Below are positions 21,411 through 41,264 of a DNA stretch of 64,000 nucleotides, piece after piece. A program made the translations under genes and the position numbers. The notes beneath the pieces are model-generated. The model was given only the letters and a program-made list of their open reading frames with translations. It was not told the DNA's origin and searched no databases. Position 1 is the first letter of the stretch. Each line of letters opens with the position of its first letter. The stretch comes from Candidatus Altimarinota bacterium (GTDB taxonomy: Bacteria > Patescibacteriota > Gracilibacteria > CAIRYL01 > GCA-016699755), in NCBI GenBank assembly GCA_963664295.1, contig OY760935.1:128001-192000 (forward strand), read 5' to 3'.

Positions 21411-23114
21411 TCAAGAAAACTTTTCCTTCTTGCTGTAATCTGTATATAGCAAAGAATTACGCTTTTTCTTGCTTTGTTTTTTTGCGTATTCCATAAACTC
21501 CAGTGCTACTGGGTTTTCATGTGCCTGACGCATTTTTAAATTACGGTCAATTTGATATAAACCTGCTATTCTTTTTTTCACAATTTCACTAGTGGAGGGG
21601 ATTGGTTGACCACCACCGCCAATGCAACCGCCAGGGCAAGCCATTACCTCAATGTAATCATAGGCTTTTGGGTCTTTTTTTAATTCATCGATTATTTTGC
21701 GAACGTTTTTTGCAGTGGCAACAACAGCTACTTTTAGCTTTAGTTTGCCAATTTTTATTTCTGCTTTTTTTACTCCTTTCATTCCACGAACTTCTTTTAG
21801 ATCCAAATTTTTCATTGGTTTTCCTGTGATCATGAAATGGGCTGTTCTTAGCGCTGATTCCATCACTCCGCCTGATGCACCATAAATAGCGGCCGCACCA
21901 GAATATGTGCCATATGTGTCCACTTCAGATTCTTTTAATTTTGTTGGATTGATTTTGTGTTTTCTTAGTAAATTGGCCAGTTCGCGAGTTGTGAGCACAT
22001 AATCAACAGGTTTTAAGCCATTTATGAATAATTTTTCATGTTGCGCTTCATATTTTTTTGATGTGCAAGGCATTACAGAAACCACCACAATTTTTTTTGG
22101 ATTTATGCCTTCTTTTTCTGCCCACCAGGTTTTATATGCTCCGCCAGAATGAATTTGTGGAGAGCGGGAAGTGGTTAAGTTTGGAATTAGCTCTGGATGA
22201 TAGAATTCTAAAAATTTTACCCAACCTGGACAACAAGAGGTAAACATTGGCATTGTTCCACCTTTAACTATTCTTTCTATTAGCTCTTCAGCTTCGACCA
22301 TTGTGGTTATATCTGCGCCCATGTTGACATCAAAAACTTTGTCAAAGCCAAGCTCTCGATAGGCACTATATAATTTTTTGGTTAAATCTTTGCCATATTC
22401 TTCGCCAAATTCTTCTCCTATGCTTGCACGCACTGATGGTGCTGTTTGCACGATTACTATTTTATTTTTATTTTTTAAAGCTTTTTCAACTTGTTCGATA
22501 TGGCTTTGTTCTCGTATTGCGCCAACAGGGCAGTGTACTGTGCATTGTCCGCAATAAATACAATCTACTTTTGGGTCTTTGTTGTAATCTATGCGGGTTT
22601 TTGAGTCGTGTCCGGATAATTGCAAAAAACAAGTACCGAGTTTTTCACACATTTCCACACATTTATTGCAATTTATGCAAAGCGCTGGATCAAACTCCGC
22701 GGCAGTTCCTAGTTTGTGAATTTTTCTTTTTGGATTATCTCTTTGATATTTTTTGCCTGTTATGCCGTATTTTTTCATTATTTCCCAGGTTTCGCAATAT
22801 AGACCTCTTGTGCACTTTGGACATTTTTCTCTATGACCTGCAAGGAGTAATTCCATGTTTTCTTTGCGGAGTTTTTTTACTTTTACTGTGTCTAGTTTTA
22901 TTTTTAATCCATCTTCTGCTTTTAGTGTGCAGGAAGTTGTTATGCTTTTTTCGGTTTCAACTAAACAAGTTCGACAGCTTGCTCCGGTTGGTAAGTCATC
23001 ATGATGGCAAAAATGTGGTATATCTAAGCCATTTCTGAGTGCAACTTGCAAAACACTTTCATCTGTTTTTGCTTGATATGCTTTGCCATTTATGTAAATT
23101 GTTATTTTTTTCAT
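21411..23114 (-). CDS. hydA: group A [FeFe]-hydrogenase catalytic subunit
   Basis: H-cluster motifs TSCCPGW, MPCTSKKYE and EVMACPGGCIGGGGQP; N-terminal 2Fe-2S, His-ligated 4Fe-4S and 2x[4Fe-4S] motifs. Confidence 0.95.
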   Translation of the reverse strand: MKKITIYINGKAYQAKTDESVLQVALRNGLDIPHFCHHDDLPTGASCRTCLVETEKSITTSCTLKAEDGLKIKLDTVKVKKLRKENMELLLAGHREKCPKCTRGLYCETWEIMKKYGITGKKYQRDNPKRKIHKLGTAAEFDPALCINCNKCVEMCEKLGTCFLQLSGHDSKTRIDYNKDPKVDCIYCGQCTVHCPVGAIREQSHIEQVEKALKNKNKIVIVQTAPSVRASIGEEFGEEYGKDLTKKLYSAYRELGFDKVFDVNMGADITTMVEAEELIERIVKGGTMPMFTSCCPGWVKFLEFYHPELIPNLTTSRSPQIHSGGAYKTWWAEKEGINPKKIVVVSVMPCTSKKYEAQHEKLFINGLKPVDYVLTTRELANLLRKHKINPTKLKESEVDTYGTYSGAAAIYGASGGVMESALRTAHFMITGKPMKNLDLKEVRGMKGVKKAEIKIGKLKLKVAVVATAKNVRKIIDELKKDPKAYDYIEVMACPGGCIGGGGQPIPSTSEIVKKRIAGLYQIDRNLKMRQAHENPVALEFMEYAKKQSKKKRNSLLYTDYSKKEKFS

Positions 23115-24112
23115 ATTTTTTTCTTGAGTACATTTTTAAGATAACTTTTTACTGGCACAGCTACAGACTGACCAAGTGCGCAAAAAGATGTTTGCTCCAG
23201 TGTTTCCACTATTTCCATGATTTTTTTCCAAGGAATTTGCTTATTTTCTGTAATTAATTTGTATAGCTGATAAGTGCCTTCTCTGCAGGGTGTGCATTTG
23301 CCACAAGACTGTAAATTGTAGAAATCAAACCATCTTTCCAGTACTTTGCGGGCTGGTGTTGATTTTTTGTAAATTTCTATTGAGCCTGCACCAGATACTT
23401 TGTGTTTTTTGAGTTGATTTTGATTGTAAACAACTCCGCTTGCACCTCCGCCAATTTGCACAAAAAATTCAAAATTTGGCAGGTTGTTTGTGTGTTTTAA
23501 TATTTTATATATGCTCCAATCTGCTGGCAGGTGATATACTCCTGGGCTTTTTACTTCGCCGTAAAGGCAGTAAAAACGTCTATTTTCAAATTCATTATTT
23601 GCTACTCGGGCAACATTGAACAATGTTTCTACATTGTGTACAAGAGTTGGTTTACCAAAAAGACCATGATTTGCCGGGTAGGGTGGTTTTATGCGTGGTT
23701 CTACTCTTTTTCCTTCTATTGCATTTATTAATGCGGTTTCTTCACCACCTATATATGAAGGAATTTCTTTGTAAATTTTTATTTCATAACCAAGTTTTTT
23801 GTATTTTTCAATTAAGCTAGTGACTGTTTTTTTTGTGCGGTGATAATAGGTTTCATTAAAATTAAAATAAGCTTTTTTTGTGCCTAAAAAATCCATTGCT
23901 ATTTTTAGTCCCTCAAAAACTTTTTCTGGATAATGTTCTATAATGAAAATGTCTTTAAAAAGACCTGTTTCGCCTTCAGAAGCATTGCAGACAACATACT
24001 TTGTTTTGCCTTTTGCTTTTTTAACAAATTGCCATTTTAAATAAGTTGGAAAGCCTGCGCCTCCTCTTCCTACTAGTCCTGCTTTTTGTATTTGTTTTAA
24101 GATTTTTTTCAT
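23111..24112 (-). CDS. NuoF/HydB-like NADH/FMN-binding subunit (minimal)
   Basis: GLVGRGGAGFPT, CNASEGE, GEETAL, NVETL, SCGKCTPCREG...FCALG. Confidence 0.92.
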   Translation of the reverse strand: MKKILKQIQKAGLVGRGGAGFPTYLKWQFVKKAKGKTKYVVCNASEGETGLFKDIFIIEHYPEKVFEGLKIAMDFLGTKKAYFNFNETYYHRTKKTVTSLIEKYKKLGYEIKIYKEIPSYIGGEETALINAIEGKRVEPRIKPPYPANHGLFGKPTLVHNVETLFNVARVANNEFENRRFYCLYGEVKSPGVYHLPADWSIYKILKHTNNLPNFEFFVQIGGGASGVVYNQNQLKKHKVSGAGSIEIYKKSTPARKVLERWFDFYNLQSCGKCTPCREGTYQLYKLITENKQIPWKKIMEIVETLEQTSFCALGQSVAVPVKSYLKNVLKKKI

Positions 24113-24609
24113 TTTTTTGTTGTTTTTATTATTGCAAAGGCGATTAATCCGCCTACTATTGCCGTTATAAATTGGGGCCAGCTCATCATTATGCTTAATT
24201 TTCCTATTAGCTTATCACTTAACATTGTGCTCATTAAAAATTGCACTGTTAAAAACAGAAAAATAAATTTCAAGAAAGCACTGGTAATAAGTGCAAAATA
24301 ATTATTTATTGGTTTTAAATAATAAAATCCAAGCACAAAAATAGCATTGGAAATAATAATAAAAGGCACCATTGGTGCAAGAGGCAAGGGAAGTAGTCCT
24401 GCTGACAATGCTACTGTGCTGGGAATTAAGCTTAAGACAAGTGCTTCACTAAGGCCAACTGTAAGCAAAGTTAGTATTAACAATCCATTAACCAAAGGAC
24501 CTGTAAGCCACTGGGTGTGTAAAAATACAGGTACAATACTAATTATTACTAAATAGCTTATAAATAAAATTATTTTTGTTTTTGGAAAAGAAATTATTTT
24601 GGTTTTCAT
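24109..24609 (-). CDS. small membrane protein, ECF S-component-like
   Basis: 166 aa, about 6 TM; QWLTGPLVNGLL and PQFITAIVGG; translationally coupled to the nuoF-like gene. Confidence 0.65.
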   Translation of the reverse strand: MKTKIISFPKTKIILFISYLVIISIVPVFLHTQWLTGPLVNGLLILTLLTVGLSEALVLSLIPSTVALSAGLLPLPLAPMVPFIIISNAIFVLGFYYLKPINNYFALITSAFLKFIFLFLTVQFLMSTMLSDKLIGKLSIMMSWPQFITAIVGGLIAFAIIKTTKK

Positions 24610-24631: not shown

Positions 24632-25633
24632 TTATTCTTCTGTTGTTATTAGCTGAGCTTGTTCAAGAAGAATGTCTCCTTGTTCTTTGATTTTTTTACC
24701 TAGAGGTTGAGTAGAAGGGTCATCAGCATAAGCTTCGCCAGCTAGGGTTTTTGCTGTTTCCACATGTTGAGCTAGTGCCTCTGTGTCGCCAGTTAAGCCA
24801 GCTTGATAAGCATAGCAAAGCTCTTGGAAACCAAGTGATATTTTATTTGCTGCTTTTGTTAGTCCTTGATCAGGCGCAGCTTCGACAGCTCTTTCAGAAA
24901 AATACACTGCCTCATTGGCCTCTTTTAAGGCTTCTTCAATATCATTTTCATTTAAAGCAACCAGAATGTTTATTAAATGAGATTCTGTAATGTTAAGCAT
25001 TTTTTGTGCATCGCCACCTCTGTTAATAATTAGTAATTTATAGATAATTTCTGCGCATTCACCTCTTGTTAAAGCTTTTTCAGGTTCTAATCTGTTGTCT
25101 AAAGTAGGGGAAATAATGCCAACAATTTTAGCATAGCTCATATAAGGCAAAAACCATTGGCCAGCAGAAGTATCCGCAGAAACACCTTCTGTTAGATTTT
25201 GATGCTTTGTTAGGTCTATTTCAAAGCTTTCTAAAAGCATTTTGAGAAATTCAGCTTTTTTAACTTGTTGAGTTGGGGTGAATTTTCCTGTGTCACCTTG
25301 CCCTTTGACTATTCCTATTTCTTTGGCTTTTTTTGTGTAGCGAGCAAACCAATCAGAAGTATTTACATCTGGAAAACCTGTTTCTTTTAATTCTTCTTCT
25401 TCGTTTATTTCTATTTTTGCGCTTAACAATATCATTTTTAAGGCGGCTGCTCTGTTTACTGAATCTTCTGGGCGAAAAGTGCCATCTGGATTGCCATTAA
25501 CTATGCCAAGATTTTTTAATGATTCTATAGCTGCATAATTTTCATGAGTTTCTGGTACATCAGAGAAAGAAGCACCCAAAGTTATTGGCATAAATAAGGC
25601 GAGTGATATGATTATTACTAAGAATTTTTTCAT
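24632..25633 (-). CDS. S-layer homology (SLH) domain protein
   Basis: signal peptide; three SLH repeats (FSDV...GIVNG...FRP...VNRA; FPDV...; ...LTRGE). Confidence 0.9.
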   Translation of the reverse strand: MKKFLVIIISLALFMPITLGASFSDVPETHENYAAIESLKNLGIVNGNPDGTFRPEDSVNRAAALKMILLSAKIEINEEEELKETGFPDVNTSDWFARYTKKAKEIGIVKGQGDTGKFTPTQQVKKAEFLKMLLESFEIDLTKHQNLTEGVSADTSAGQWFLPYMSYAKIVGIISPTLDNRLEPEKALTRGECAEIIYKLLIINRGGDAQKMLNITESHLINILVALNENDIEEALKEANEAVYFSERAVEAAPDQGLTKAANKISLGFQELCYAYQAGLTGDTEALAQHVETAKTLAGEAYADDPSTQPLGKKIKEQGDILLEQAQLITTEE

Positions 25634-25707
25634 AATTATGATTTAAAGTTTGTATTTTTTAAAAATTTTACAGTAATTTGTCAAAAAGACAAAATTATTT
25701 TTTAGTT

Positions 25708-28059
25708 TTAATAAGTTCTTAATCTTTCCCAATGAGCTGATCCAGAAGTATTTTCTATGTTAACATAAATTCTATCATTACTTGTGTTTACCCAAATTGT
25801 GCCTACTGCATAGCCATCATCAATATCATCATTAGAGTCTGGATTACTTGTGTCAAGGTGTTGCGACGCTCCCAAACTGGTATTTGAGCTATTGTCACTT
25901 ATCCACTCTGTGGTGTTTTCAAATTTATTATTACTAATTAAGGTTCGATCAGATGAAGAGTCAATATCTATGCCAATATCCCAAGAATATGTGCCACCAG
26001 TAATCATATTATTGGCAAAAATATTATCATCATTATTACCTTCTGTATAAAAAGCAGTTGCATCTGATGTGTCTGAAGCACCTTTCACCACATTTCCTTG
26101 GAAGATATTTCTGTGTACTTCTGTATCGCTATCTGAGCTTCCTATGGTAAAGCCTCTATTAAAGCCACTTCCACTATTTGCTGTGCCATCAATTGTGTTT
26201 GAAGAAAAGTTTGAATCAGTCACTTGTCTTGAGGCAGGTCCGCCAAATCCTTCAATTACTATTCCTTGAGAATTTGAGCTTAATGATCCGCTAACCACAT
26301 TGGCGGTCATGTTTACTCTGCTTGAATCACCAATAAAAATTCCATAACTTGTCCATGTGCCTGCGCCCATTCGTGAAAATCGATTATTGTATAGTGAACT
26401 GTCTTCTACGCCTACAAAAACCGCTACTGTTTCGCGTACATAATCAACATTATTACTTTCTATTAAAGCATTTCTGATTGTATTTCCATTTGTCCAAACT
26501 CCACTTCCTGAACCATAGCCATCACCACCGCTAACATGAATTCCATCTGTAAAATAACTACTCACAGTGCTGTCACCAAAAATACGACAATTTTTTATTA
26601 CTGGTCTTAATAAATCTTCACTAGTTCCATCTAAGAATTGAATTCCTATGCGGGCTGAATCACCACTTCCTGATTGTCCTGAAGTTTTTATTACTGTGAT
26701 GTTGTATAGCTGTATATCTTTTCCACCTGTTGCTCTGATGCCGTGGATACTTGGGCCATCTACTTCTAATTTAAAATCTTTAAGAATTACATTATCTACT
26801 GGAGTGGAGCCGTCAGCTGATCCTATTTGAATTGCTGATGTAGTTGTGCTTGATCCAGAAAAACTGCTTAAAACTTTGATCACAGAAGAGTCGCCATAGC
26901 CAATAATTTCAATATTGTCATGATTTATATTGACTGTTTCTTCAATTTCGTGAGTTCCAGGCAGTAGCGTGATTATTCCTCCACTTGGTAAACTATTGAT
27001 CAATGCTTGTAAATTCATTTCTGGATAAGCGAAGATTGTACTACTTGGATAAGTTGTGATGTTGCCAGTAGTGACGGCATTAACTGAACCTGAAAGTGCA
27101 ATATCCCAATCACTAAAATTTAGAGAGCCATTTCCACCTTGTGCTCCAATAAAAAAAGTTGAACCAGAATTAAAATTTGTACTTGCTTGTGCAGGTACTA
27201 TGTTTGCTGTTCCGGAAATTGAAGAAGAAGGGCTAACAAAACGAGTAATTACTGTTGGAGCTGGTGTTAATGAGCTATTCATTAAAAATTTATCATCTTC
27301 AGTAATAAAATTTACCCATTTAAAAAGCAAGGCGCTGTTTGTGCCTGTGCCGTCTTTGACATTAATTCCATAATCACTACTTAAGCTTGAATCAGCTTCA
27401 ATAATCATATTGTCAAATTGTGTGTTTTTGGCGATTATTTGACCATTATTTACAATTAGTATTTTTGTGTCTGTTTCACTTGCGCCAATAAGATTAATAT
27501 TTTCCAGATCCACACTTGTTGTGATTTGGTGAATTTCTGGAGTAAGCAAAATAATTCCACCTGTTAATCCATTTAGGTAAGTAGCTGCTTCAGCAATTGT
27601 TGCGTAGTTTCCACCTGAACCTACTGTCACCACCTTACTAGTTGCAGTTGTTGTTGTGGCAATAACTGCCCAATTGTAAACACTGGCACTTTCTTCAATA
27701 CAAATAAAACCATTTTTTGAACTTGTATTGTAGTATTGCCTACCTACATTGTTTATGTCGCAAGTTGGTGCTGAGCTATTATTTTCTAGGCGAAAATTAA
27801 TAATTTCATTGCCATTGAAATTTAGGTCGTTACTGATGGTGAAATATGAATTAGCTTCATCCCAAAGCAAAAATTCATTTAAAGAAGATCCAAATTGAAG
27901 TTTCATGTCACCGGTTGCATCTTCTTCATTGATTAAAAGAGTGTTTTGTTCAATGCCATAATCAATGTCACCACTAAACAAAATAAGCTCTTCAGCAAGG
28001 GATATTGGGAGAAGTAAAAATATGCTTATTATGATGCCGAAAAGCCTTTTTATAATCAT
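25708..28059 (-). CDS. secreted right-handed beta-helix protein with shared N-terminal fibre module
   Basis: signal peptide; LQFG..L.WD module; two pectin-lyase-like entry motifs (TIAEA...GGIILL and LQALIN...GGIITLLPG); Asn-ladder repeats. Confidence 0.75.
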   Translation of the reverse strand: MIIKRLFGIIISIFLLLPISLAEELILFSGDIDYGIEQNTLLINEEDATGDMKLQFGSSLNEFLLWDEANSYFTISNDLNFNGNEIINFRLENNSSAPTCDINNVGRQYYNTSSKNGFICIEESASVYNWAVIATTTTATSKVVTVGSGGNYATIAEAATYLNGLTGGIILLTPEIHQITTSVDLENINLIGASETDTKILIVNNGQIIAKNTQFDNMIIEADSSLSSDYGINVKDGTGTNSALLFKWVNFITEDDKFLMNSSLTPAPTVITRFVSPSSSISGTANIVPAQASTNFNSGSTFFIGAQGGNGSLNFSDWDIALSGSVNAVTTGNITTYPSSTIFAYPEMNLQALINSLPSGGIITLLPGTHEIEETVNINHDNIEIIGYGDSSVIKVLSSFSGSSTTTSAIQIGSADGSTPVDNVILKDFKLEVDGPSIHGIRATGGKDIQLYNITVIKTSGQSGSGDSARIGIQFLDGTSEDLLRPVIKNCRIFGDSTVSSYFTDGIHVSGGDGYGSGSGVWTNGNTIRNALIESNNVDYVRETVAVFVGVEDSSLYNNRFSRMGAGTWTSYGIFIGDSSRVNMTANVVSGSLSSNSQGIVIEGFGGPASRQVTDSNFSSNTIDGTANSGSGFNRGFTIGSSDSDTEVHRNIFQGNVVKGASDTSDATAFYTEGNNDDNIFANNMITGGTYSWDIGIDIDSSSDRTLISNNKFENTTEWISDNSSNTSLGASQHLDTSNPDSNDDIDDGYAVGTIWVNTSNDRIYVNIENTSGSAHWERLRTY

Positions 28060-28132
28060 TAGGGAATTTAAGTGATACTATTCATATAATTATATCACTT
28101 TGAGAGTTTTTTTTCAATGTTTTATCGCTTTA

Positions 28133-29467
28133 TTAAGGCTTTTTTTCTGTTATTACCCAAGATTGATTAGCAATCATATCTGAACTATAAGCTGAGCCCT
28201 CTCTCATGCATAAAATTTCATAATATTCATCATCAGAGCTGGTTTCGATAATAAAATTTGCTGTATTTGTTGCAAATTCATCAGTTGTATTTCTTGAGTA
28301 TGAATATGAATCAGAAGGGGTGACTTTTGTTGTGCCATTTAATCTTGCCCAACAATGTACATTTTTTCTTCCGCTTGTCTGGCTTTCATGAGAAATACTA
28401 TAAGAAATAGTATAAACACCTGCTTCATCAAGATATATTCTGCTATTGTTTGTTGATGTGTTGTGTGTTATTCCGCTGTCTTTTAGGCTTTCTTGGTTCC
28501 AGGGAATAGTTGTGGCAGTATCTGTGTTAACATCTGTTCCGCCGGTGCTATCATAAAACTGCGCCATTATTCTTGTTATTTCTGACCCCGATGAACTACC
28601 AGAAGAAACTCCTTGTTTCATTTGGGTTATTGTTAGTGTTGTTTCATTTATGATTTCATTTGATGTTGTGCGCATAACCTGTAAGGTAATGTAATCATTT
28701 GTGCTTAATTCTGCCAAAAATACTGCTGTTGTAGGACCATATTCATTTCCATAGTTGCGATTTACTAAATATGAGCCATTTAGCACTGTTGAATCATTTG
28801 CTCTTACTCTTGTTTCTAATTGATGTGTACTTGAATTATTTGCATTTACTTGATAAGAAATAAGATAAAGTCCGCTTTCTTTAATATCAATCCTATCCGT
28901 ATTGCTAGTATTGTGCTCAAGAATGGTGTCATCTGTTTCTATGTCTGTTGTGTCTAGCTCAAGATCATACCAAGTGCTTGTTGAAGACATTGTATAATCT
29001 GTTGTGCGACGAGCTTGTACTGCTGGTTGATCACTTGCTGTGACTGTGCCACCTCCGCCATTTATTGTTTCCCAACTTGTGCCATTGCAAACATAAGTAT
29101 TATTGTCTGCGGTGTTAAAATAAATTCTTCCTTGCGAACTACTGTCGCAAGTTGGCGCAGTAGCAAGGTTTTCAATATTAAAATTTAATAATTCATTTCC
29201 GCCTAAGTTAAGGTCATTACTAAGAGTAAAATAAGAATTTGCATTATCCCAAACAAGATACTCATTAAGAGTTTGTCCAAATTGTAATTTGGTGTTTTCT
29301 GTTGAATTTTCTGCATTGATAATTAAAATATTTTGATCAATTTCATATTCTTCATCACCAGTATAAAGCGCAATTTCGCTTGCGTTAGCAAAATTGTGCA
29401 GAAATACGCATATTATAGCCATTATTGAGATTTTTTGTTTTAGGGGCATGAATAAAGTTTTGTTCAT
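28133..29467 (-). CDS. secreted fibre-like protein with two C1q/BclA-like head domains
   Basis: signal peptide; LQFG module; GRIYFNT; duplicated HNTS.N..RI.....G.Y.ISY beta-sandwich. Confidence 0.65.
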   Translation of the reverse strand: MNKTLFMPLKQKISIMAIICVFLHNFANASEIALYTGDEEYEIDQNILIINAENSTENTKLQFGQTLNEYLVWDNANSYFTLSNDLNLGGNELLNFNIENLATAPTCDSSSQGRIYFNTADNNTYVCNGTSWETINGGGGTVTASDQPAVQARRTTDYTMSSTSTWYDLELDTTDIETDDTILEHNTSNTDRIDIKESGLYLISYQVNANNSSTHQLETRVRANDSTVLNGSYLVNRNYGNEYGPTTAVFLAELSTNDYITLQVMRTTSNEIINETTLTITQMKQGVSSGSSSGSEITRIMAQFYDSTGGTDVNTDTATTIPWNQESLKDSGITHNTSTNNSRIYLDEAGVYTISYSISHESQTSGRKNVHCWARLNGTTKVTPSDSYSYSRNTTDEFATNTANFIIETSSDDEYYEILCMREGSAYSSDMIANQSWVITEKKP

Positions 29468-29521
29468 ACAATTATATCATTTGTAAGCCATTTTTTCAAT
29501 CATTTCTTAGTTTAGGAATAT

Positions 29522-29554
29522 AAAAAAACACACTGACTTAGTCAGTGTGTTTTT
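29522..29554 (-). terminator. intrinsic terminator
   Basis: AAAAAAACACACTGAC-TTA-GTCAGTGTGTTTTT hairpin downstream of the 666-aa gene. Confidence 0.8.
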
Positions 29555-29576
29555 AGTCTCAATTTTTACTTTTATC

Positions 29577-31577
29577 TTATGAAGATTGAAGCGCTGTTGA
29601 GTTGTATCTTAGAACAATTTCCCCGATATATGGTGAGTAGTAAGTGCCTGCATTATAGCGTCCGTAACCTTTTACTGTGATGTAAACATAATCACCAGCA
29701 CTTGATGCACCGCCTGCAAAATCTTGTGCTAGTTCTGTCCAGGCTGTGTTGTATAGACCTGTTGAAGTCGCAATTGTTGTACCAGCTTCATCTTGAACTG
29801 TGATATCTAATTGTGTGTCTGATGTTGTTCCAGGGGCAGTATCATTTTTATAGAAGAAACTTAGATTGTTTCCAGAAGCTACGCTCCAGTCTTTGAAATC
29901 TTCAGGTAATTTTACTTTAAATCTTAGGGTTAAGTCTTGTTGTGCAGTACGGCGTGTTTTGAGGATATAATATTGGTGAGGATTTGCACCTGTTTCGCTA
30001 TCTGTGTATAGATTTGCTCTATTATTTGTGCCGTCTTCCTGAACAGTTAGGTCGTTCATAGAAACAAACATTGTTTGATCGTTTGTTCCTCCAGAAAGAG
30101 TGTCAATAGCTTGGTTCAAATCTTCCAAAGAGCCTGTGATTGTGTCGCCGTCTGTTAGGCTTAGTCCATCTGTGTAATCTCTATCACCAATAGCTACACT
30201 CAAATCTTCTACAGAGCCTGTGACAGTATCACCGTCTGTGACAACATTACCGTCTGTATAATCACGAGCTCCAATAGCAACATCAATGTTATCTACAGAA
30301 GTAGCTAGAGATTCACCACTTGTGATAATGTTTTCTTCTGTATATGCAGTTCTGTCGCCAATGGCAGCGTCAATATCTTCTGTCACTAGCTGTACATCTG
30401 TATTGTTTGAGTTATCAAAGTTATCAACTAAAGGTAGGTCTGCACCACTGATTTGTCCTGCGCCTGTGCCCCAGTCGATACTATCTTGATCAATTGAGTC
30501 ATCAATAATTACTTCACCATCAAGATTACCAGCAGCGTTTGTGATTGCAACATCGCCTGTTCCTGCTGTGATAGTACCATCAACATCGAGAGCACCTCCC
30601 ATTGTAGTATTAGAGTCAACATTAAGAGTGCCAGCGATATCAACATTACCGTTTGCATCAAAATTGCCATCTACTCTAGAATGACCAACTACGCGGAAAT
30701 TTTGATCAACTTGAGCATCGCCACCGATTGTAACATTGTCAGTCACATCAAGATCTGTGCCTACGCTCATAGTGCTATCTGAAGAGATGGTATTACCAGA
30801 AATGTCGCCAGTTGTGTCAATATTACCAGTTGCTGAAATTCCTCCTTGAATAGTTAGATCATCAGTAATTACAAAATTACCAGCAGAAGTATCCCAGTAA
30901 AGTTGTTCATTGATAGTATTTCCAAATGCCAAAGTGACATCAGCACCAGCAGGAAGATCATCAGTATCAATGACAAAAAGATTACTTTTTGTACCTGTGA
31001 TATTAGTATCACCTCCGCCAAGAGCTTGATCTAAGGCGTCAATAGAAGCTGTCACTGTTTCGCCGTCACTAACAAAGTTGTTTGAAGTATAGTCACGATT
31101 TCCAACTTCAGTATTGATAGTTTCCATGTTGTCCGCTAAAGAATTAGCTTCGTCAACATCTTGCAACATATAATAGTTGCCATTTGTATAATCTTGGTCA
31201 CCAACTTCAGTGTCCAATTCAGAAACATCAACACCATCTACTGTTTCACCAGCTTGCATGTTTACACTGCCTGTTAGATCAATATCGCCAGTAACACCTA
31301 GGTCACCAGTAACATTAACATCATCAGTGAAAACAAACTCACTTTGGTCAATATCCCAATATAATTGGTGAAGACCAGTTCCAAATTGGAGTGTGATGTT
31401 TTCTGTTGCCGCACTATCACCGTCATTGTCCAAAATAAGCAAGTTAGAGTTTTCCTCTTTTTGTTCATTGCTGTAGATTTGGATTTCGTCGGCCTGTGCT
31501 GTGGCTAATCCTTGAGACAAAACCATGGCAAATGCCAGGCTTGTGCTGAGGATTTTTCGTAATTTTTTGTGTTTCAT
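29577..31577 (-). CDS. secreted acidic fibre-like protein
   Basis: signal peptide; two LQFG/LAFG modules, G.l.V.G beta-strand repeats and 28-aa repeats; C-terminal domain shared with 33393-34835. Confidence 0.75.
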   Translation of the reverse strand: MKHKKLRKILSTSLAFAMVLSQGLATAQADEIQIYSNEQKEENSNLLILDNDGDSAATENITLQFGTGLHQLYWDIDQSEFVFTDDVNVTGDLGVTGDIDLTGSVNMQAGETVDGVDVSELDTEVGDQDYTNGNYYMLQDVDEANSLADNMETINTEVGNRDYTSNNFVSDGETVTASIDALDQALGGGDTNITGTKSNLFVIDTDDLPAGADVTLAFGNTINEQLYWDTSAGNFVITDDLTIQGGISATGNIDTTGDISGNTISSDSTMSVGTDLDVTDNVTIGGDAQVDQNFRVVGHSRVDGNFDANGNVDIAGTLNVDSNTTMGGALDVDGTITAGTGDVAITNAAGNLDGEVIIDDSIDQDSIDWGTGAGQISGADLPLVDNFDNSNNTDVQLVTEDIDAAIGDRTAYTEENIITSGESLATSVDNIDVAIGARDYTDGNVVTDGDTVTGSVEDLSVAIGDRDYTDGLSLTDGDTITGSLEDLNQAIDTLSGGTNDQTMFVSMNDLTVQEDGTNNRANLYTDSETGANPHQYYILKTRRTAQQDLTLRFKVKLPEDFKDWSVASGNNLSFFYKNDTAPGTTSDTQLDITVQDEAGTTIATSTGLYNTAWTELAQDFAGGASSAGDYVYITVKGYGRYNAGTYYSPYIGEIVLRYNSTALQSS

Positions 31578-31732
31578 TTTTGTGTTTTTAAATAGGGAAA
31601 TTTTTAAATTATCAGAAAATTATAACCCAAAAAAATAAAAAAGTCAAAGGTAAAAAAAATAAGCAAGAATAAAACACTATAAGTTGATTTTTGCAGTATT
31701 TTTTGATATTATATAAGGATATAAAACAAAAA

Positions 31733-33328
31733 TTGAAAAAACAAAAATTAGCTATATTTTTATTATTGGCTTTTGCCTTAACAAAAACCTGCTTTGCAAG
31801 TAGTAGTGCTGATTTTAAATTAGAATATGATTCGATAGACACTTCTTTTAGTGCTTTATATGGAGATGATTTTTATATAGACGGAGGAATGATTTCAATT
31901 CAACGCATTGGGTCTTCTGCTGACTTTAAAATAGAGCCTATTTTTTTAACTGACCCTGCTGGGCCTACTTGTGGCAATGGTGTTATAGATAGCGGTGAAA
32001 TTTGTGATTCTGGTAATTTTGGAGGTTTAACTTGTGGTGATTTTGGTTATCCAAATGGTAATTTAGTTTGCGTAAGTTGCACCTCGATTGATATTTCTTC
32101 TTGCTATACATCAAGAAGTGGATCATCTAATCCTGCTGGTAATCCAAATTGGATTTGGAACAATGACGACGACGATGATGATGACAATGAAACTGGCAAT
32201 GAAGAACAGGAAGGTGAAAATCAGGAAGAAGAAAACCAAGAACCAACAGAAACACCAGATGAAAATGAGCAAGCAAGTGAAGATGAAGAACAGGAAGAAG
32301 AAAATCAAGAAGCAACAGAAGAAGATAATGAAAATAATGAGGAAGAAAATAAAAAAGAAGATCAAGACCAAGTTTCTGAGTCAGAAGAGAGTGGAGAACA
32401 AGAAAAGCCAAGTGAATTATTAGATGAAGAAAAAATTCCGGAAAAAATTGAAAATAAAATAGAGAAAAAACCAAGTGAACCAGAACCTGCCACAGCAAAG
32501 CCAGAGATAGAGTCAGAAAAAACAATAGAAGATAAGCAAGAAGAACAAAGAGAAAATTTATATCCTGCCGCAGAGGAACAAAAAGAAGCACAAGCAGAAC
32601 AAATACATTTTAATTATAATTGGCTATTTAATTTTGAATATCACTTAAAAACTTATAGCAAATGGCAAATAATTGACTCAATCGACCAAACTCCGCTTTT
32701 AGCAGGAGAATTAGAAAAAAATAAAACTTATTCACTCAGTGTTTATGATCAAAAAAATCAATTGATTGAAAAAAAAGAAATAAAAACAAATGAAGATGGT
32801 GATTTTTCTTACGAAATAGAAAATCAGCTTGAGCCAGGCAGGTACGATGTTGTTTTTGTAGAACAGGTAAATGGTAAACCAAAATTTATTCGTCAGTATT
32901 TTTTAAATGTAAAAAAAGAAAAAGAAGAAGATAAAAAAATAAATCTTGGAACAATAAATCCAGATCAAAATTGGCCAACAATAAATATAAAAGCATCACC
33001 GCGCAATGAAGTTTTTATTTATATTGAAGACAAAAAAGGCTTAATAGAACTTTTTGAGGAAAAAGTTGATAATTTTGGCTTAATGGATTTTGAAATTCCA
33101 AAAGATTTACCAAAAGGGGAATATAAAATGTATATAATAGAACTAACTCAAGCAGGAAAAGAAAATTATAAAATCACAAAAGATATTACTTATTTATTTG
33201 AGATAGATGATTTACTGCACGCTACTGCACCCGAAGAAAATAGTAATTATTTATTTTTATATTTTATTTCTTTTTGGGTTTTATTGCTTTTCTTTTCTTA
33301 TCGTTTAATAGTAAAAAATAAAAAATAG
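31733..33328 (+). CDS. membrane-anchored surface protein (Cys-rich repeat, acidic linker, Ig-like domains)
   Basis: signal peptide from TTG 31733; CGNGVIDSGEICD; E/N/Q-rich tract; C-terminal TM followed by KNKK. Confidence 0.7.
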   Translation: MKKQKLAIFLLLAFALTKTCFASSSADFKLEYDSIDTSFSALYGDDFYIDGGMISIQRIGSSADFKIEPIFLTDPAGPTCGNGVIDSGEICDSGNFGGLTCGDFGYPNGNLVCVSCTSIDISSCYTSRSGSSNPAGNPNWIWNNDDDDDDDNETGNEEQEGENQEEENQEPTETPDENEQASEDEEQEEENQEATEEDNENNEEENKKEDQDQVSESEESGEQEKPSELLDEEKIPEKIENKIEKKPSEPEPATAKPEIESEKTIEDKQEEQRENLYPAAEEQKEAQAEQIHFNYNWLFNFEYHLKTYSKWQIIDSIDQTPLLAGELEKNKTYSLSVYDQKNQLIEKKEIKTNEDGDFSYEIENQLEPGRYDVVFVEQVNGKPKFIRQYFLNVKKEKEEDKKINLGTINPDQNWPTINIKASPRNEVFIYIEDKKGLIELFEEKVDNFGLMDFEIPKDLPKGEYKMYIIELTQAGKENYKITKDITYLFEIDDLLHATAPEENSNYLFLYFISFWVLLLFFSYRLIVKNKK

Positions 33329-33392
33329 TTTACTTGTGAATGTTTTTTAACTTTGATAAAATATTATGATACATTGCCCGCAATATAAATAA

Positions 33393-34835
33393 ATGAAGAA
33401 AATAATTTGCAAATTTTTGGCTTTAATAATAGCAATAACCACTGCTAATTTCTGTGAATTAACAGAAGTTAAAGCTTTGCAAGTGCCTGATTTTATTATT
33501 TATGAAGGCAGATTATTAGATAGTGCGGATCAGCCGATCACAACAGCTTATATGTTTCGCTTTTCTTTGTGGAAAAGCAATGATTTTAATTCTGCTGTTG
33601 ATCTTAATGCTACGGGCGGAATAGACACAACCGCACCAAATTATGGACAATGGCAAGAACAACAAGTGGTGACCCCAAATAGTAAAGGTATTTTTTCTGT
33701 TCAACTTGGAAAAACAACACCTTTCACAGGTATTGATTTTAGTTTACATAAATATTTGCAAGTTGAAATTAAGGCAGTGGCCGACCCAGCTACTGCTTAT
33801 CAACTCATGGATCCTACTGGAGACAATGGCACAGATGCCAATGATCGCAAAGCAGTTGGCTCTTTGCCATATGCTCTTAATGCAGAAAGTGCATACAAAA
33901 GTAATCAAGAAGTTTTTGTTATAGATGCCGACGATACAATAGAAACCGCAGGAGTAGGTGCAATTCAGCTTCAGTTTGGCAATTCTCTTGGCAAGATTTT
34001 GTCGTACGATTTTACTAATAGTTATTTTGATTTTAATGATAGTGTAAATATTCAGGGTGACTTAACTCTGACTGGTCTTATCAATGGTGTTAATATCGCT
34101 CTTGTTCACACACAAAACACAGACACAGGCACAAGTTCGCCAACTTTTGAAATTAATAGTGCTGGAAATAAATTAGTTATTGATACAGCAGGGCTCACAG
34201 ACGATAGAATAGTGACCTTTAATGACGCCGATACTGTTGTGGTGGGTGAAGACAATGTTCAGACTTTGACCAATAAAACAATCGATGGAGATCAAAATAC
34301 ATTAGTAAATATCGACCGTTCTGCATTAAAAAACCAAAATAAAACAATAATTCTTTCACCTGATTATCAAAATATCACCATTTATCAAGATGGCACTGAC
34401 AATAAAGCTAGTATTTATGGCGGTAATGATGGTGATCAGCAGTATTATTTCTTAAGCTCACAAGAAAGCACTCTGCAGGATTTAGACTTAAAAATTGTAG
34501 TTCCTGTGCCAGATGACTTTGTGGCTTGGCAGTCAAGCGCAGTTGTTGGGCAAAGTGATCCTCTGGGAATGGTTATAAAAACCACAACAATAGATCCAAG
34601 CATTACTCAAGTTGATGTTGTTGTTAACGATAGCCTTGGTAATCCTGCCACCTTAACAGGAGGAAGCGACCTTGCTGGTTTTAATGTTGATATTTGGGAA
34701 AGAAAAAACATTGCATTTACTGGTACACCAACTTTTACCCCAGGTGAAAGTTTTTTGCTTACAATAAAAATGCAAGCCAAAGACAATAAAAAAGTTTATG
34801 TTGGCGAAATAAAACTAAATTATATTGGTAAATAA
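33393..34835 (+). CDS. secreted fibre-like protein
   Basis: signal peptide; YEGRLLD...GIFSVQLG...PYALNA N-terminal domain; LQFG module; QTLTNKT; C-terminal domain shared with the 666-aa protein. Confidence 0.75.
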   Translation: MKKIICKFLALIIAITTANFCELTEVKALQVPDFIIYEGRLLDSADQPITTAYMFRFSLWKSNDFNSAVDLNATGGIDTTAPNYGQWQEQQVVTPNSKGIFSVQLGKTTPFTGIDFSLHKYLQVEIKAVADPATAYQLMDPTGDNGTDANDRKAVGSLPYALNAESAYKSNQEVFVIDADDTIETAGVGAIQLQFGNSLGKILSYDFTNSYFDFNDSVNIQGDLTLTGLINGVNIALVHTQNTDTGTSSPTFEINSAGNKLVIDTAGLTDDRIVTFNDADTVVVGEDNVQTLTNKTIDGDQNTLVNIDRSALKNQNKTIILSPDYQNITIYQDGTDNKASIYGGNDGDQQYYFLSSQESTLQDLDLKIVVPVPDDFVAWQSSAVVGQSDPLGMVIKTTTIDPSITQVDVVVNDSLGNPATLTGGSDLAGFNVDIWERKNIAFTGTPTFTPGESFLLTIKMQAKDNKKVYVGEIKLNYIGK

Positions 34836-37324: not shown

Positions 37325-38980
37325 ATGGGCGAAGATAATCAAAATAAAGATCAAAATGGCGTAAAATCTCTGCTTACTGGGCTAAATCAAGAGTTCAAAG
37401 AGCGAGAAATAGCAGAAAAAGCAAAAAATATGAGTATTGGCTATGTTGATTTAACAAAATTGCCAATAAACATAGATTTACTTGATATTATTAGTCGTGA
37501 ACAGTCTATAAAAGCTCAAGTAATGCCATTTTTTAAAGTTGGCAAAAAATTACGCTTAGCTGTAATAGATCCAGAAAAAGAAGAAACAAAAAATTTAATA
37601 AAAGAATTAAAGGAAAAAGATTTTGATATTCATTTAAGCCTTTGTTCTGAAGAATCACTTGTTTTTGCTCAGCAAAAATACAAATCAGAACTTCATTTTG
37701 AAGAAAAAGAACTAATAGCAGAAGACAGCGCAAGAGTTGATAATGTAGCCCAAGAAATAGATTCAATTCGTGAACTTCCAGAAAAATTAAAAGATTTAAA
37801 ATCTGATGAAGCATTAAATTTATTGCATGTTGAGATTTTGCGCTTAAATGCTAGTGATTTGCATTTTGAGCCACAAAAAAATTCATACAGAATAAGAGCA
37901 AGAATAGACGGATTATTAACTGATTTTTTTGATTTAGACCTAAACACAAGCCAAGGTTTAGTAAGGCAAATTAAGCATTTAGCTCGCATGAAGCTTAATG
38001 TTGTGAATGTGCCTCAAGATGGCAAATATTCTTTTAAAGCAACAGAAAGAAGTGTTGATGTGCGTGTTTCCACTTTACCAGCAAAAAATGGAGAAAGTAT
38101 TGTTATGCGTTTTTTAGATCCAAAAAAAGGTTTACTTAGCTTGGAGCAACTTGGTTTTTCAGAAAAAGCATTAGTAAGATTTAGGCAAGCAGTTTCACTA
38201 ACAAATGGTCTAATACTAGCAACAGGTCCAACAGGAAGCGGTAAAACAACCACTCTTCATTCTGTTTTGCACGAAATAAACACACCAGATAAAAAAATTA
38301 TTACCATTGAAGACCCAGTAGAATTTCAAATTCCTGGAGTTGTGCAATGTGAGGTAAAAGAAGATCAAGAATTTACTTTTGCAAGTGGCTTAAAATCTGT
38401 CTTAAGGCAAGATCCAAATATTGTTATGATTGGTGAAATCAGAGATCAAACAACAGCAGAAACAGCAGTACAAGCCTCACTGACTGGACATTTGGTGCTT
38501 TCAACTTTACATACAAATTCATCTGCTGATGCAATTCCTCGTCTTTTAAACATGGGAGTTGCGCCTTTTGTGCTTGCTCCTGCAGTAAAATGTATAGTTG
38601 CACAAAGATTAGTGCGCACATTATGCAAAGACTGCTTGCAATATGAAGAGCCAGAAGAAATTGTATTAAGAGAAATAAAACAAGTTGTTGATAATTTAAA
38701 TAATCGTGGAGAAAAAATAGAATTACCAACAAAATTACCAATAGCAAAAGGTTGTGACAAGTGCTCAAATACAGGCTACAAAGGCATTACAGCAGTTTCA
38801 GAGGTTTTATTTATTGACGCAACACTCGAAAATATGATTTATAAAAATCCTACAGATATGGAAATAATAAAATACGCAACCGAAAACGGCATGCGTACAA
38901 TGTGGGAAGAGGGGATATTAAAAATAATTAACGGAGAAACTTCTTTTGATGAAATTGTCCGCCATATTAACAAACAATAA
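37325..38980 (+). CDS. pilB: type IV pilus/T2SS assembly ATPase (PilB/GspE)
   Basis: ASDLHFEP, GPTGSGKTTT, TIEDPVE, RQDP..IMIGEIRD, STLHTN, CxxC pairs. Confidence 0.92.
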   Translation: MGEDNQNKDQNGVKSLLTGLNQEFKEREIAEKAKNMSIGYVDLTKLPINIDLLDIISREQSIKAQVMPFFKVGKKLRLAVIDPEKEETKNLIKELKEKDFDIHLSLCSEESLVFAQQKYKSELHFEEKELIAEDSARVDNVAQEIDSIRELPEKLKDLKSDEALNLLHVEILRLNASDLHFEPQKNSYRIRARIDGLLTDFFDLDLNTSQGLVRQIKHLARMKLNVVNVPQDGKYSFKATERSVDVRVSTLPAKNGESIVMRFLDPKKGLLSLEQLGFSEKALVRFRQAVSLTNGLILATGPTGSGKTTTLHSVLHEINTPDKKIITIEDPVEFQIPGVVQCEVKEDQEFTFASGLKSVLRQDPNIVMIGEIRDQTTAETAVQASLTGHLVLSTLHTNSSADAIPRLLNMGVAPFVLAPAVKCIVAQRLVRTLCKDCLQYEEPEEIVLREIKQVVDNLNNRGEKIELPTKLPIAKGCDKCSNTGYKGITAVSEVLFIDATLENMIYKNPTDMEIIKYATENGMRTMWEEGILKIINGETSFDEIVRHINKQ

Positions 38981-38983
38981 ATA

Positions 38984-39235
38984 TTATTTTACCTCTTTAA
39001 TATCAAGTGTTGCTCCTGCATCAGCAAGGCTTTTTAAAAAAAGCTGAACTTTTTCTTGAATTAGTGTTGCTCCTGGGATTTTTTCCACAAAAATAGCATC
39101 TTCTGCAACAGTAATGCTATCTATTCCTAATACTCCTTTTGTCACCTCTTCTTCTATTGAGCCAAAAGGTTGATCATTGCCATTATTGATAGTAAGGTCA
39201 TATAGCCGAGTTGTTTCAATTTTGGGATATTTCAT
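38984..39235 (-). CDS. small hypothetical protein (paralogue of 39248-39520)
   Basis: PKI....Y.L.I, LG and PG..L....Q.FL shared with neighbour. Confidence 0.7.
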   Translation of the reverse strand: MKYPKIETTRLYDLTINNGNDQPFGSIEEEVTKGVLGIDSITVAEDAIFVEKIPGATLIQEKVQLFLKSLADAGATLDIKEVK

Positions 39236-39247
39236 TTTAACCTTGAA

Positions 39248-39520
39248 TTATTTAGTTTCTATTTCGCCAATAACAAGATTAAATTTTTCTTGATCAATAT
39301 TGCTAAGAAAATCTTGCATTTTACTTTTCATCAAAGCTTCTCCTGGTACGCCACCAACAAGAAGAGTTCTGTTAAGTGCTTGTAAATTTTCTAATCCTAA
39401 GTTTGCCATCATAAAACTTCTTGCGTTAGTAATAATTTTTTCTGCTTCTGCAGTTTCAGGGTCTTTAGGTGAAATAATAAGATTATATTTTTTTTCAGCA
39501 TCGATTTTAGGGATTGTCAT
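39248..39520 (-). CDS. small hypothetical protein (paralogue of 38984-39235)
   Basis: shared motifs with neighbour; upstream TTGACA on the minus strand. Confidence 0.7.
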   Translation of the reverse strand: MTIPKIDAEKKYNLIISPKDPETAEAEKIITNARSFMMANLGLENLQALNRTLLVGGVPGEALMKSKMQDFLSNIDQEKFNLVIGEIETK

Positions 39521-39664
39521 ATGTTTTAAAATAAGGGCAAATAATATTCACTATTATTGTAAATTTGTCAAGAGTAAAAAAATATAAACACAAAAATCAG
39601 ACCTTTTACTTGAGAAAAGAGGCTTATTTTGATATAATAATATGAATATATAGAAACCAAAAAA

Positions 39665-40567
39665 GTGCTTCAATACAAAATTCCACAAAATGTGCAAATT
39701 GAAGACCGCATAACTTCATTTTTAACAGTAAGACAACTGATTATTTGCGCTATTGGCGGTGGGATTATATATATGATTTATATTTGGCTTTCAAAGTATT
39801 ACTACGCAGAAGTTTGGCTACCGCCAGTTTTTATTCTTAGCGCAATCACTCTTGCTGTTGCATTTGTAAAAATAAATGGACTAACTTTTACAAAATGGAC
39901 ATTGCTTTTTTTGGAACACATGATCAACCCAAAAAAAAGAGTTTGGGATAACACAAAAACAAATGAATTGTTTTTTAGTTTTGTGACCAGCAAAAGAACA
40001 ACAAAAAAGAAAGAAGCAAAAAAAGAGCAAGAGTTAGAAGAAAAAGACTTCACAGCCTTGGAAGAAATCACAGCAAGATTAGACAGCAATCCATTTGAAA
40101 ACATAAAAAAAACAGAAAAAAAACAAGAAGTAGCAAAAAAAGAAAATTTTTCAGACCATAGTATCTTACTTGATGACAAAGAACGAGAAAGACATGAGCA
40201 AAGGCTAGAAGAAGCAATATTAGCAAATATAAAACCGAAAAATCCTCAAAAAATAAAAAAATCACTACAGGAAAAAATCACAAAAACACCACAAAAAGAA
40301 GCAAAAATCGAAATAGAACACGAAATAAAACCTTTAAAAAGCACAGCCTCTGTACAAAAAAGAGAATTTGCAATACCAGAAATAGCAACAACAAACCCAC
40401 AAACAACAATAAAACCACAGACAGCAAGTCGTTTTCGTCCAGTTCGTGAGAAAAAAATAAACACAGTAGAAAAACCGCAAGTACCAGAAGACCACAAAGA
40501 AATGCTTAGTAAAAAAGGCGAAAAAGAAATTAAAGTAAATTTTGTTCCCAAAAAAGATGAACGATAA
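39665..40567 (+). CDS. PrgI-family membrane protein
   Basis: QYKIPQNVQIEDRI...LTVRQL, two TM segments, PKKRVW, long charged tail. Confidence 0.8.
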   Translation: MLQYKIPQNVQIEDRITSFLTVRQLIICAIGGGIIYMIYIWLSKYYYAEVWLPPVFILSAITLAVAFVKINGLTFTKWTLLFLEHMINPKKRVWDNTKTNELFFSFVTSKRTTKKKEAKKEQELEEKDFTALEEITARLDSNPFENIKKTEKKQEVAKKENFSDHSILLDDKERERHEQRLEEAILANIKPKNPQKIKKSLQEKITKTPQKEAKIEIEHEIKPLKSTASVQKREFAIPEIATTNPQTTIKPQTASRFRPVREKKINTVEKPQVPEDHKEMLSKKGEKEIKVNFVPKKDER

Positions 40568-41264
40568 AACAGTAAGACAACGCAAAACCAGTCCACAGGC
40601 AACAACACAGGTTTTTATGCCAGTTTCAGAAGTAAAAGACAGCACATTGGTATTAAAAAATGGTGGAATTAGAGCAGTTTTGCAGACATCAAGCGTAAAT
40701 TTCAATCTCAAATCAGAACAAGAGCAAAATTCAATTATTTATGGTTTTCAGAACTTTTTAAATAGTGTTGATTTTCCTGTGCAAATTGTTGTGCGCAGTA
40801 AAAAACTAGATATTGATAATTATCTTGAAAATCTCACAGACATAGCAGAAAAACAGGAAAATCCATTACTTAGAAAGCAGTCTTTTGAATACATAGAATA
40901 CATTAAAAAATTAGTAGAATATGCAGATATTATGGAAAAGAAATTTTTTGTAATTGTGCCCTATGATCCCCTAAGAGCAAAAACTCAAGGAATGTGGAAG
41001 ACTTTTTGGCAGGGAATTCACCCAGCTGATTCTTTGGAAGCAATTCGCCAAAGACACAGAGAGTTTTCTTCACTTAAAAAAGGCTTAGACACAAGAGTAA
41101 ATTTAGTAAAAGCAGGACTAGAAGGTTGTAATTTAAGAGTAGAAAGATTAAACACAAAACAATTGGTAGAATTGTTTTTTCAGATTTACAATCCAGACAC
41201 AGCGCGTAATCAAAAAATAAAAGGCAAAGATGGCTTTGAAGCATTAGATATTCTCCCAACCTAA
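40557..41264 (+). CDS. VirB4/TraC N-terminal-like conjugation-associated protein
   Basis: SVNFNLKSEQEQ..II..FQNFLNS.DFPVQI, the gene usually found after PrgI in CPR genomes. Confidence 0.7.
   Translation: MNDKTVRQRKTSPQATTQVFMPVSEVKDSTLVLKNGGIRAVLQTSSVNFNLKSEQEQNSIIYGFQNFLNSVDFPVQIVVRSKKLDIDNYLENLTDIAEKQENPLLRKQSFEYIEYIKKLVEYADIMEKKFFVIVPYDPLRAKTQGMWKTFWQGIHPADSLEAIRQRHREFSSLKKGLDTRVNLVKAGLEGCNLRVERLNTKQLVELFFQIYNPDTARNQKIKGKDGFEALDILPT

Follow-up and report, generated by a model that had tools for sequence, protein, structure and literature searches.

A conserved gene cassette of Gracilibacteria may encode an attachment fibre assembled by a plug-and-socket rule

Here we describe a cassette of six genes at positions 24,632 to 34,835 of a 64,000-nucleotide stretch (the window) of Candidatus Altimarinota bacterium contig OY760935.1. 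We propose, with a probability of about 0.6, that it encodes one attachment fibre in which several secreted chains are linked end to end by a plug-and-socket rule. All chains would be exported by Sec, which is likely, and a membrane-seated 545-aa protein (the anchor) would use three N-terminal repeats to grip a 480-aa base chain (chain A), whose N-terminal domain resembles that of the Bdellovibrio MAT fibres. The C-terminal domain (CT) of A would take an N-terminal segment of 8-25 residues (the plug) from a 666-aa extender (chain B), and the CT of B would take a similar segment from a tip chain that carries either a beta-helix (783 aa) or twin C1q-like domains (444 aa). Gene fusions suggest the grip of the anchor; fusions, swaps and co-occurrence suggest the two junctions. 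A module shared by A, B and the tips would serve as a repeated stalk unit behind the plug, and, at the wall, a 333-aa SLH protein with a helical C-domain (SLHC) probably acts as a brace or chaperone for the assembly. The tips likely bind host-cell surface glycans, which the beta-helix may trim. The host genome is a single 1.215-Mb contig read with genetic code table 11, and the tiny bacterium is probably host-dependent.

All six open reading frames (ORFs) were confirmed, at 333, 783, 444, 666, 545 and 480 aa, and form two divergent units. An initial annotation of this DNA had reported one "LQFG" module in the 783-, 444-, 666- (twice) and 480-aa proteins, and alignment bears this out, with L, FG, L, D, F and G conserved in every copy. 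Beyond this core the motif is looser than first written, with LAFG in the second copy of the 666-aa protein and YD replacing WD in the 480-aa protein. The five window copies score 61.9-78.7 bits with a hidden Markov model (HMM) from which they were excluded, against 9.4 bits for the runner-up among the 4,356 ORFs of the genome and at most 6.7 bits for reversed ORFs; exactly five copies are present in the genome, all in this locus. No Pfam family above its cut-off covers the module, which speaks against its being a characterised domain. The other reported similarities are equally evident: the 666- and 480-aa proteins share a C-terminal domain (30% identity over 183 aa, E = 3e-12), and the 783- and 444-aa proteins share 121 N-terminal residues at 50% identity (DNA 70% identical over 223 nt). 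A signal-peptide-like hydrophobic stretch begins all six proteins (hydropathy only), the 666-aa protein having the weakest. The SLH protein and the immunoglobulin (Ig)-like transmembrane (TM) protein had been described as flanking the fibre genes; both are present, but the TM protein sits within the cluster, immediately upstream of the 480-aa gene.

We find that the cassette is conserved in roughly one in three sampled genomes of the class Gracilibacteria/Peregrinibacteria, a sample that includes TGA-recoded genomes. The N-domain of chain A occurs in 80/251 class genomes and the CT in 73/251, with both in 70 (hand count). We mapped 81 loci of up to 20-24 kb each, many of them cut by contig ends; among the 71 with an A chain, B is found in 51, a tip in 46 and SLHC in 46. 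Synteny in relatives is strong. Loci of relatives were translated with table 11, except L029 and L062 (table 25), which were kept out of most alignments; two mis-cut loci (L061, L021) were left out of the alignment of B N-termini. In a wider sample of the phylum, the module was found in 5/151 genomes, two of these being weak matches outside the class.

The distribution of the CT and of the chain N-termini carries most of our argument. Chain A (33393..34835, plus strand) consists of the MAT-like N-domain (33474-33896), a module (33870-34091), a short stalk and an A-type CT (34338-34829). Chain B (29577..31577, minus strand) has a putative plug (31464-31487), followed by a first module (31272-31481), a second module (30810-31013), a stalk and a B-type CT (29595-30083). 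In an AlphaFold2 (AF2) monomer model of chain A (mean pLDDT 86.8), the CT is a galactose-binding-like jelly-roll that matches TmCBM61 (Z 12.0, root-mean-square deviation (rmsd) 2.8, 133 residues aligned); other fold matches are tailspike C-domains and an archaeal virus turret. The MAT tip structures Bd2133 and Bd1334 are not among the fold matches listed for the CT, an absence that carries no evidential weight. The CT is strictly terminal, being internal in 0/121 matches in the loci and flagged as internal in none of 358 proteins, and the module, C1q and beta-helix domains all occur at internal positions. At the other end, a module at the head of a chain is preceded, at the mature N-terminus, by a short segment whose type varies with the family; internal modules have no such segment. 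Comparison of genomes points to this segment and the C-terminal jelly-roll as the likely joint, with the CT predicted to bind N-terminal segments.

Gene fusions and losses are consistent with this. In four loci (L023, L025, L044, L053), A is a long chain and no separate B is present; these A-B fusions keep the B-type CT and the tips, and have neither an A-type CT nor a B N-terminus. In a quick tree of the CT, the B-type clade that includes the fusions has 98% SH-aLRT support. In a further four genomes (G203, G214, G306, G384), A ends in another head and no CT is found anywhere in the genome. Two CT matches occur in 57/73 CT genomes (hand count, one being a split gene).

In a separate example, 13/401 genomes were found to have a divergent CT of a third type, CT3 (P 88% and E 2.7e-6 by HHalign against CT), which goes together with a DF-type motif at the start of another chain. 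By locus, 11 have both, two have CT3 only, none has the motif only and 40 have neither (L096 was left out of this table), and families f10 and f12 each include both states. Because the genomes are kin, the association is weaker than the Fisher p of 1e-9 implies. In one of the two discordant loci (G271), the motif can be seen by eye on the next chain, which has no detected module and was missed by the script. Genome-wide, matches covering the motif were found in 11/13 CT3 genomes and in 0/34 others, these 34 being CT3-negative in the fetched loci and, by a listing that does not show each one, not among the CT3 positives. Four CT3 genomes were found after the idea had formed; three carry the predicted DF motif on the next gene, and the fourth is fragmentary. 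In total, 12/13 CT3 genomes have the motif. It has persisted through four families and two genetic codes, and the bodies to which the two sides of the junction are joined differ from genome to genome. In G187, for instance, which lacks B, CT3 forms the end of chain A itself and the DF motif is on the tip. Given that the window genome has no CT3, its chain would run from the anchor through A and B to either tip.

A number of observations weigh against the plug-and-socket assembly. The fold of the CT is of the carbohydrate-binding-module (CBM) type, like the C-terminal heads of tailspikes, so the domain may be no more than a head that binds sugars. A DF gene always follows directly downstream of the CT3 gene, and block inheritance could yield their co-occurrence in these related genomes, and 9 of the 11 positives in the genome-wide scan were in the training alignment. 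No DF tip accompanies the weak CT3-like end in locus L016; G380 has no DF chain, its genome being 81% complete with the gene at a contig end. Fusions of A with B can also come from recombination between modules. In distance matrices from 30 loci, from which the atypical CT chains of L052, L072 and L082 were left out, the B N-terminal segment has a partial correlation of 0.50-0.55 with B's own CT, 0.41-0.46 with SLHC and -0.04 to -0.08 with the CT of A. These values are heuristic and depend on the distance used, with most of the signal between families and little within them. Lastly, B moves together with a copy of the SLH-SLHC gene, away from A, in three genomes (G022, G198, G239).

Some of these points would suit a bouquet of independent MAT-like adhesins, in which each chain forms its own homotrimer, the anchor holds A, the helical domain of the SLH protein holds the N-termini of B and the tips, the CT is a sugar-binding or folding head and the module is a recombination point for tip swapping. 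Such an arrangement would fit the CBM-like fold, the way the B segment tracks SLHC, and the presence of SLH-SLHC in all 73 CT genomes, with duplication where A and B sit apart; it would also fit those A chains that end in plain adhesin heads, which we take to be a lectin-like domain or a MAT-like VGIGT-repeat fibre. It leaves unexplained, however, the coupling of CT3 to the DF motif across four families, the arrangement in G187, the near-fixed count of two CTs and the loss of B when A has no CT. Moreover, SLHC reaches 99/251 class genomes, and in the 26 of these that have SLH-SLHC and are CT-negative, no fibre gene lies near it in 16/16 loci examined. We consider independent adhesins an unlikely, if serious, alternative.

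The tie between the B segment and B's own CT, the strongest of the three, raises another scenario, that B is a self-polymerising, pilin-like subunit whose N-terminal segment would slot into the CT of the B before it, with the first B seated on SLHC or A and the tips as caps. The segments of B and the tips hardly differ in family f9, the B gene in the window comes with a strong promoter-like site and a terminator of its own, and the A-B-fusion lineages, which could not polymerise in this way, have stalks of 520-680 residues. In the order to which the window genome belongs, however, B and the tips consistently have different segments, of the IQIYSNE type and the I-F/Y-x-G-D type, respectively. 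The length of B before the CT already varies from about 210 to 980 residues across relatives, suggesting that fibre length is set by the chain, and the correlation may reflect shared gene history; we regard polymerisation as improbable. Least probable by far, and largely refuted, is a remnant of a prophage or other mobile tail-fibre region without a cellular role. Parts of the chains do resemble phage fibre pieces, as seen in tailspike folds and in PHROG matches that include virion-protein similarity in the knob of the 444-aa chain. Yet the proteins have signal-like N-termini, a membrane anchor, an SLH partner and intact ORFs, the cassette is conserved over many families, and the GC content of the locus resembles the remainder of the window. 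No match to the cassette was found in 50,697 phages, 72,556 plasmids or a viral-contig scan, and Terminase_6N has no match in the genome, in agreement with the lack of phage genes noted in the initial annotation.

To return to the plug-and-socket fibre, its root is suggested by the N-domain of chain A, which the initial annotation had missed. Residues 27-169 match NCBIfam NF053851 (Bdello_MAT_N) with E = 9.5e-6 and 25.5 bits against a cut-off of 60. The same family matches 29/84 chain-A homologues at E <= 0.01 and no other NCBIfam family matches them; the cut-off is passed in 0/41 genomes. The MAT_N-like domain is confined to chain A, being absent from B and the tips, and its sequence suggests a remote homologue of the Bdellovibrio MAT N-domain. 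Homologues of the 480-aa protein with a named source belong to Patescibacteria, Ca. Gracilibacteria, Ca. Peregrinibacteria and Peribacteraceae; together with the TGA-recoded genomes in the class sample, they suggest that the host is a member of the class Gracilibacteria, in the candidate phyla radiation. An ESM Atlas search with the 480-aa protein returned only leads below 0.9. PDB sequence searches with the 480-aa protein, its alignment, the module, the CT, the 783-aa alignment and the 444-aa protein gave nothing significant.

The anchor (31691..33328, plus strand) carries three N-terminal repeats of the S-S-x-D-F type (31799-31975), a Cys-rich repeat, an acidic linker, Ig-like domains and a C-terminal TM helix. 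In 27/66 strong A chains, the anchor is fused in frame to A as a single ORF, in which a TM helix, a basic loop and a second signal-like helix precede the N-domain. A separate, co-oriented ORF lies upstream in 34/66; four have none nearby and one is at an edge. An automatic repeat-plus-TM test is passed by 22/34 of the upstream ORFs and by 3.7% of 435 background ORFs. Based on the in-frame fusions and the upstream ORFs, we take the anchor to be the probable partner of the MAT-like domain. According to the Discussion of PMC10769870, the surface element to which MAT N-domains bind is unidentified, and the cassette supplies a candidate for it; we found nothing further on this partner in a 2026 review (PMC13689555).

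Base chains also vary in ways of their own. In family f9, a helix-turn-helix (HTH) or insertion-sequence (IS)-like segment heads the anchor-A polyprotein in the same frame, before the anchor part (L059:13375-16272, L063:3632-6637, L064:11041-16227, L075:13261-16233, L048:8060-11167), and proteins similar to these polyproteins also bear HTH Pfam labels. A divergent second N-domain subtype is found on extra chains (L016:5390-7441, L042:7195-10290, L066:2237-3541, L081:5995-6927, L092:1896-3461), giving some loci more than one base-like chain. Chain A is split in L052:11283-14783 and L072:9365-13157 into a chain with the N-domain and module, ending in a small Cys-rich domain that is presumably lectin-like, and a second secreted chain with a long Cys-rich N-terminus, a module and an A-type CT; this is possibly a fourth socket-plug pair inserted into A. 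The ORF at L064:11041-16227 is a single-chain MAT-like fibre in the candidate phyla radiation (CPR), of 1,728 aa with VGIGT-type repeats. Outside the class, L096:5216-12469 encodes a 2,417-aa single chain with a weak module match and a Peptidase_S74 domain.

The module itself is present in 1,361 clusters at 50% identity, often in multiple copies per protein. In the architecture it is a repeated unit that follows the plug, and it likely serves as a stalk that spaces globular beads. We considered and rejected the module as the socket or plug itself, because it is often internal and repeated and one chain with the DF motif has no detected module. Bactofilin labels on module-bearing proteins were likewise rejected, being sub-cut-off for the window protein and placed on Gly-rich beta repeats.

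The two tips of the window differ as had been reported. The 783-aa chain (25708..28059, minus strand) has a putative plug (27967-27990), a module (27775-27981), an APT knob, a beta-rich segment (27061-27633), a right-handed beta-helix (25867-27039) and a C-terminal knob, and no CT. In its AF2 model, whose first 116 modelled residues are of low confidence, residues 341-731 match AlgE4 (Z 38.4, rmsd 1.8, 321 aligned). The beta-helix also matches tailspikes (Z 30-35, VIA-align) and PfbA (Z 35.1), a non-phage adhesin with the same fold. The 444-aa chain (28133..29467, minus strand) has a putative plug, a module (29162-29368) and an APT knob, again without CT, and two C1q/BclA_C-like domains (28619-29026 and 28142-28567), where Pfam BclA_C matches two stretches with 38.7 bits (cut-off 38). 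The tip region of the 783-aa chain shares 30-48% identity with 10 tips from four other families and is absent from the fetched loci of its own order, which fits tip exchange. In L046 and L050, 783-like and 444-like chains are fused as one. A further split-tip arrangement is seen where long multi-C1q proteins without a module lie directly behind short module-knob chains (L017:13391-17065, L018, L020, L086:7148, L089:8241).

The SLH protein (24632..25633, minus strand) is a 333-aa secreted protein with three SLH repeats (Pfam SLH, 83 bits, three stretches) followed by SLHC (24635-25018), for which a PDB sequence search returned only designed helical repeats and a few weak others. Lone SLH-SLHC genes (L097-L112) often adjoin rpsL/rpsG or a Mur-ligase-like gene, and such a gene may have a role of its own. 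The host genome encodes many SLH proteins; among the genes outside the window are two giant ORFs, one of 4,435 aa with SLH repeats and the other of about 4,700 aa (G000:C1:1163525-1176832 and G000:C1:103418-117628).

Sigma70-like sites (11/12, consensus match only) lie on the minus strand upstream of the 783 gene (28089..28117), the 444 gene (29471..29499) and the 666 gene (31619..31647), such that each tip chain would be behind its own promoter-like site; overall, promoter-like sites are not above shuffled sequence (51 versus 44.4). A terminator-like 14-bp hairpin with a T-tail follows the 666 gene (29524..29554, minus strand). Directly after the SLH gene and co-directional with it (window 21411-24609) are a [FeFe]-hydrogenase-like gene, a NuoF-like gene and a gene for a small membrane protein, all named by eye. 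Near the cassette (window 37325-41264) are a PilB/GspE-like ATPase (by eye), a PrgI family protein (Pfam) and a weak TraC/VirB4-N-like protein.

How CPR bacteria find and hold their hosts is described as largely unknown beyond type IV pili in the abstract of PMC11623550. The cassette is a concrete, class-wide candidate for host attachment in the CPR, and its small tip set could be used on glycan arrays to predict the hosts of uncultured lineages. If the plug-and-socket rule holds, it would be an undescribed mode of fibre assembly, accessible to study with short peptides and a single 170-residue domain, and might furnish orthogonal protein connectors. We further suggest, as a tentative proposal that we rate somewhat short of an even bet, a new appendage class: a programmable chain of phage-fibre-like trimers in which typed CT sockets read typed plugs (at least three pairs), rooted in the three-repeat anchor as the missing receptor for MAT-type N-domains, with tip swapping choosing hosts in Gracilibacteria/Peregrinibacteria. 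Domain types and the MAT homology indicate that the chains are probably trimeric.

The initial annotation had called the locus an undescribed appendage with interchangeable heads. A conserved, syntenic and phage-free system of tail-fibre-like parts whose heads can be exchanged is indeed supported, and we found no description of it in CPR in our searches of the open-access literature, but the base chain is remotely MAT-related, so the system is not wholly undescribed in kind, and the module is better read as a stalk unit. As described for the MAT (mosaic adhesive trimer) fibres of Bdellovibrio bacteriovorus (Caulton et al. 2024, PMC10769870), the chains are secreted, chromosomal and phage-fibre-like, with mosaic tips including C1q/TNF-like ones; the conserved beta-rich domain of about 130 aa that directly follows the signal peptide in MATs has a remote counterpart in chain A. 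MATs are also homotrimers over their full length that bind prey or host glycans at the cell surface, traits that the chains here would share. The MATs reported there are single chains in 21 copies, 13 with S74 and 8 without. In contrast, the host genome here has no Omp85 match, the cassette has one base chain plus chains lacking the MAT-like domain, its anchor candidate is encoded beside A or fused to it, and its swappable C-terminal tips, though mosaic as in MATs, are mostly on separate chains. S74 has no Pfam match in the window proteins or the 84 chain-A homologues, and no VGIGTxxP capping-loop repeats were seen by eye in the window proteins; a second A-type chain in G282 does have VGIGT-type repeats. 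Given that the N-domain is sub-cut-off and confined to one chain, we do not file the cassette as a member of the MATs.

The branched tailspikes of Ackermannviridae (CBA120 TSP1-4), as outlined in PMC8825819 and PMC11414711, likewise bring multiple chains, which differ in their receptor-binding ends, onto one anchored chain through N-terminal docking parts. Those tailspikes assemble via the N-terminal region of TSP4, whereas the socket proposed here is a C-terminal domain in a cellular system exported by Sec, and the phage context and baseplate anchoring of tailspikes are replaced by signal-like N-termini without a phage match. For the XD/TD docking domains, we found no PDB sequence match with the chain A, module or CT profiles; fold searches were dominated by the CT and beta-helix and barely cover the N-domain and module. 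Donor-strand pili (chaperone-usher and type V) also consist of anchor, extender and tip subunits, whose order is fixed by an N- or C-terminal strand placed into the adjacent subunit and whose specificity comes from strand-groove pairs; these subunits are monomeric Ig-like or transthyretin-like folds that follow an usher or lipoprotein route. Here, by contrast, the chains would be long, probably trimeric and phage-fibre-like, with the CT modelled as a complete jelly-roll socket. Neither an usher nor a lipoprotein signal was seen in the cassette, no search having been aimed at usher families, and Omp85 has no match in the host genome. By analogy, the cassette appears MAT-like in purpose, branched-tailspike-like in being multi-chain and donor-strand-pilus-like in logic, and it is a real and conserved system with a plausible new assembly principle.

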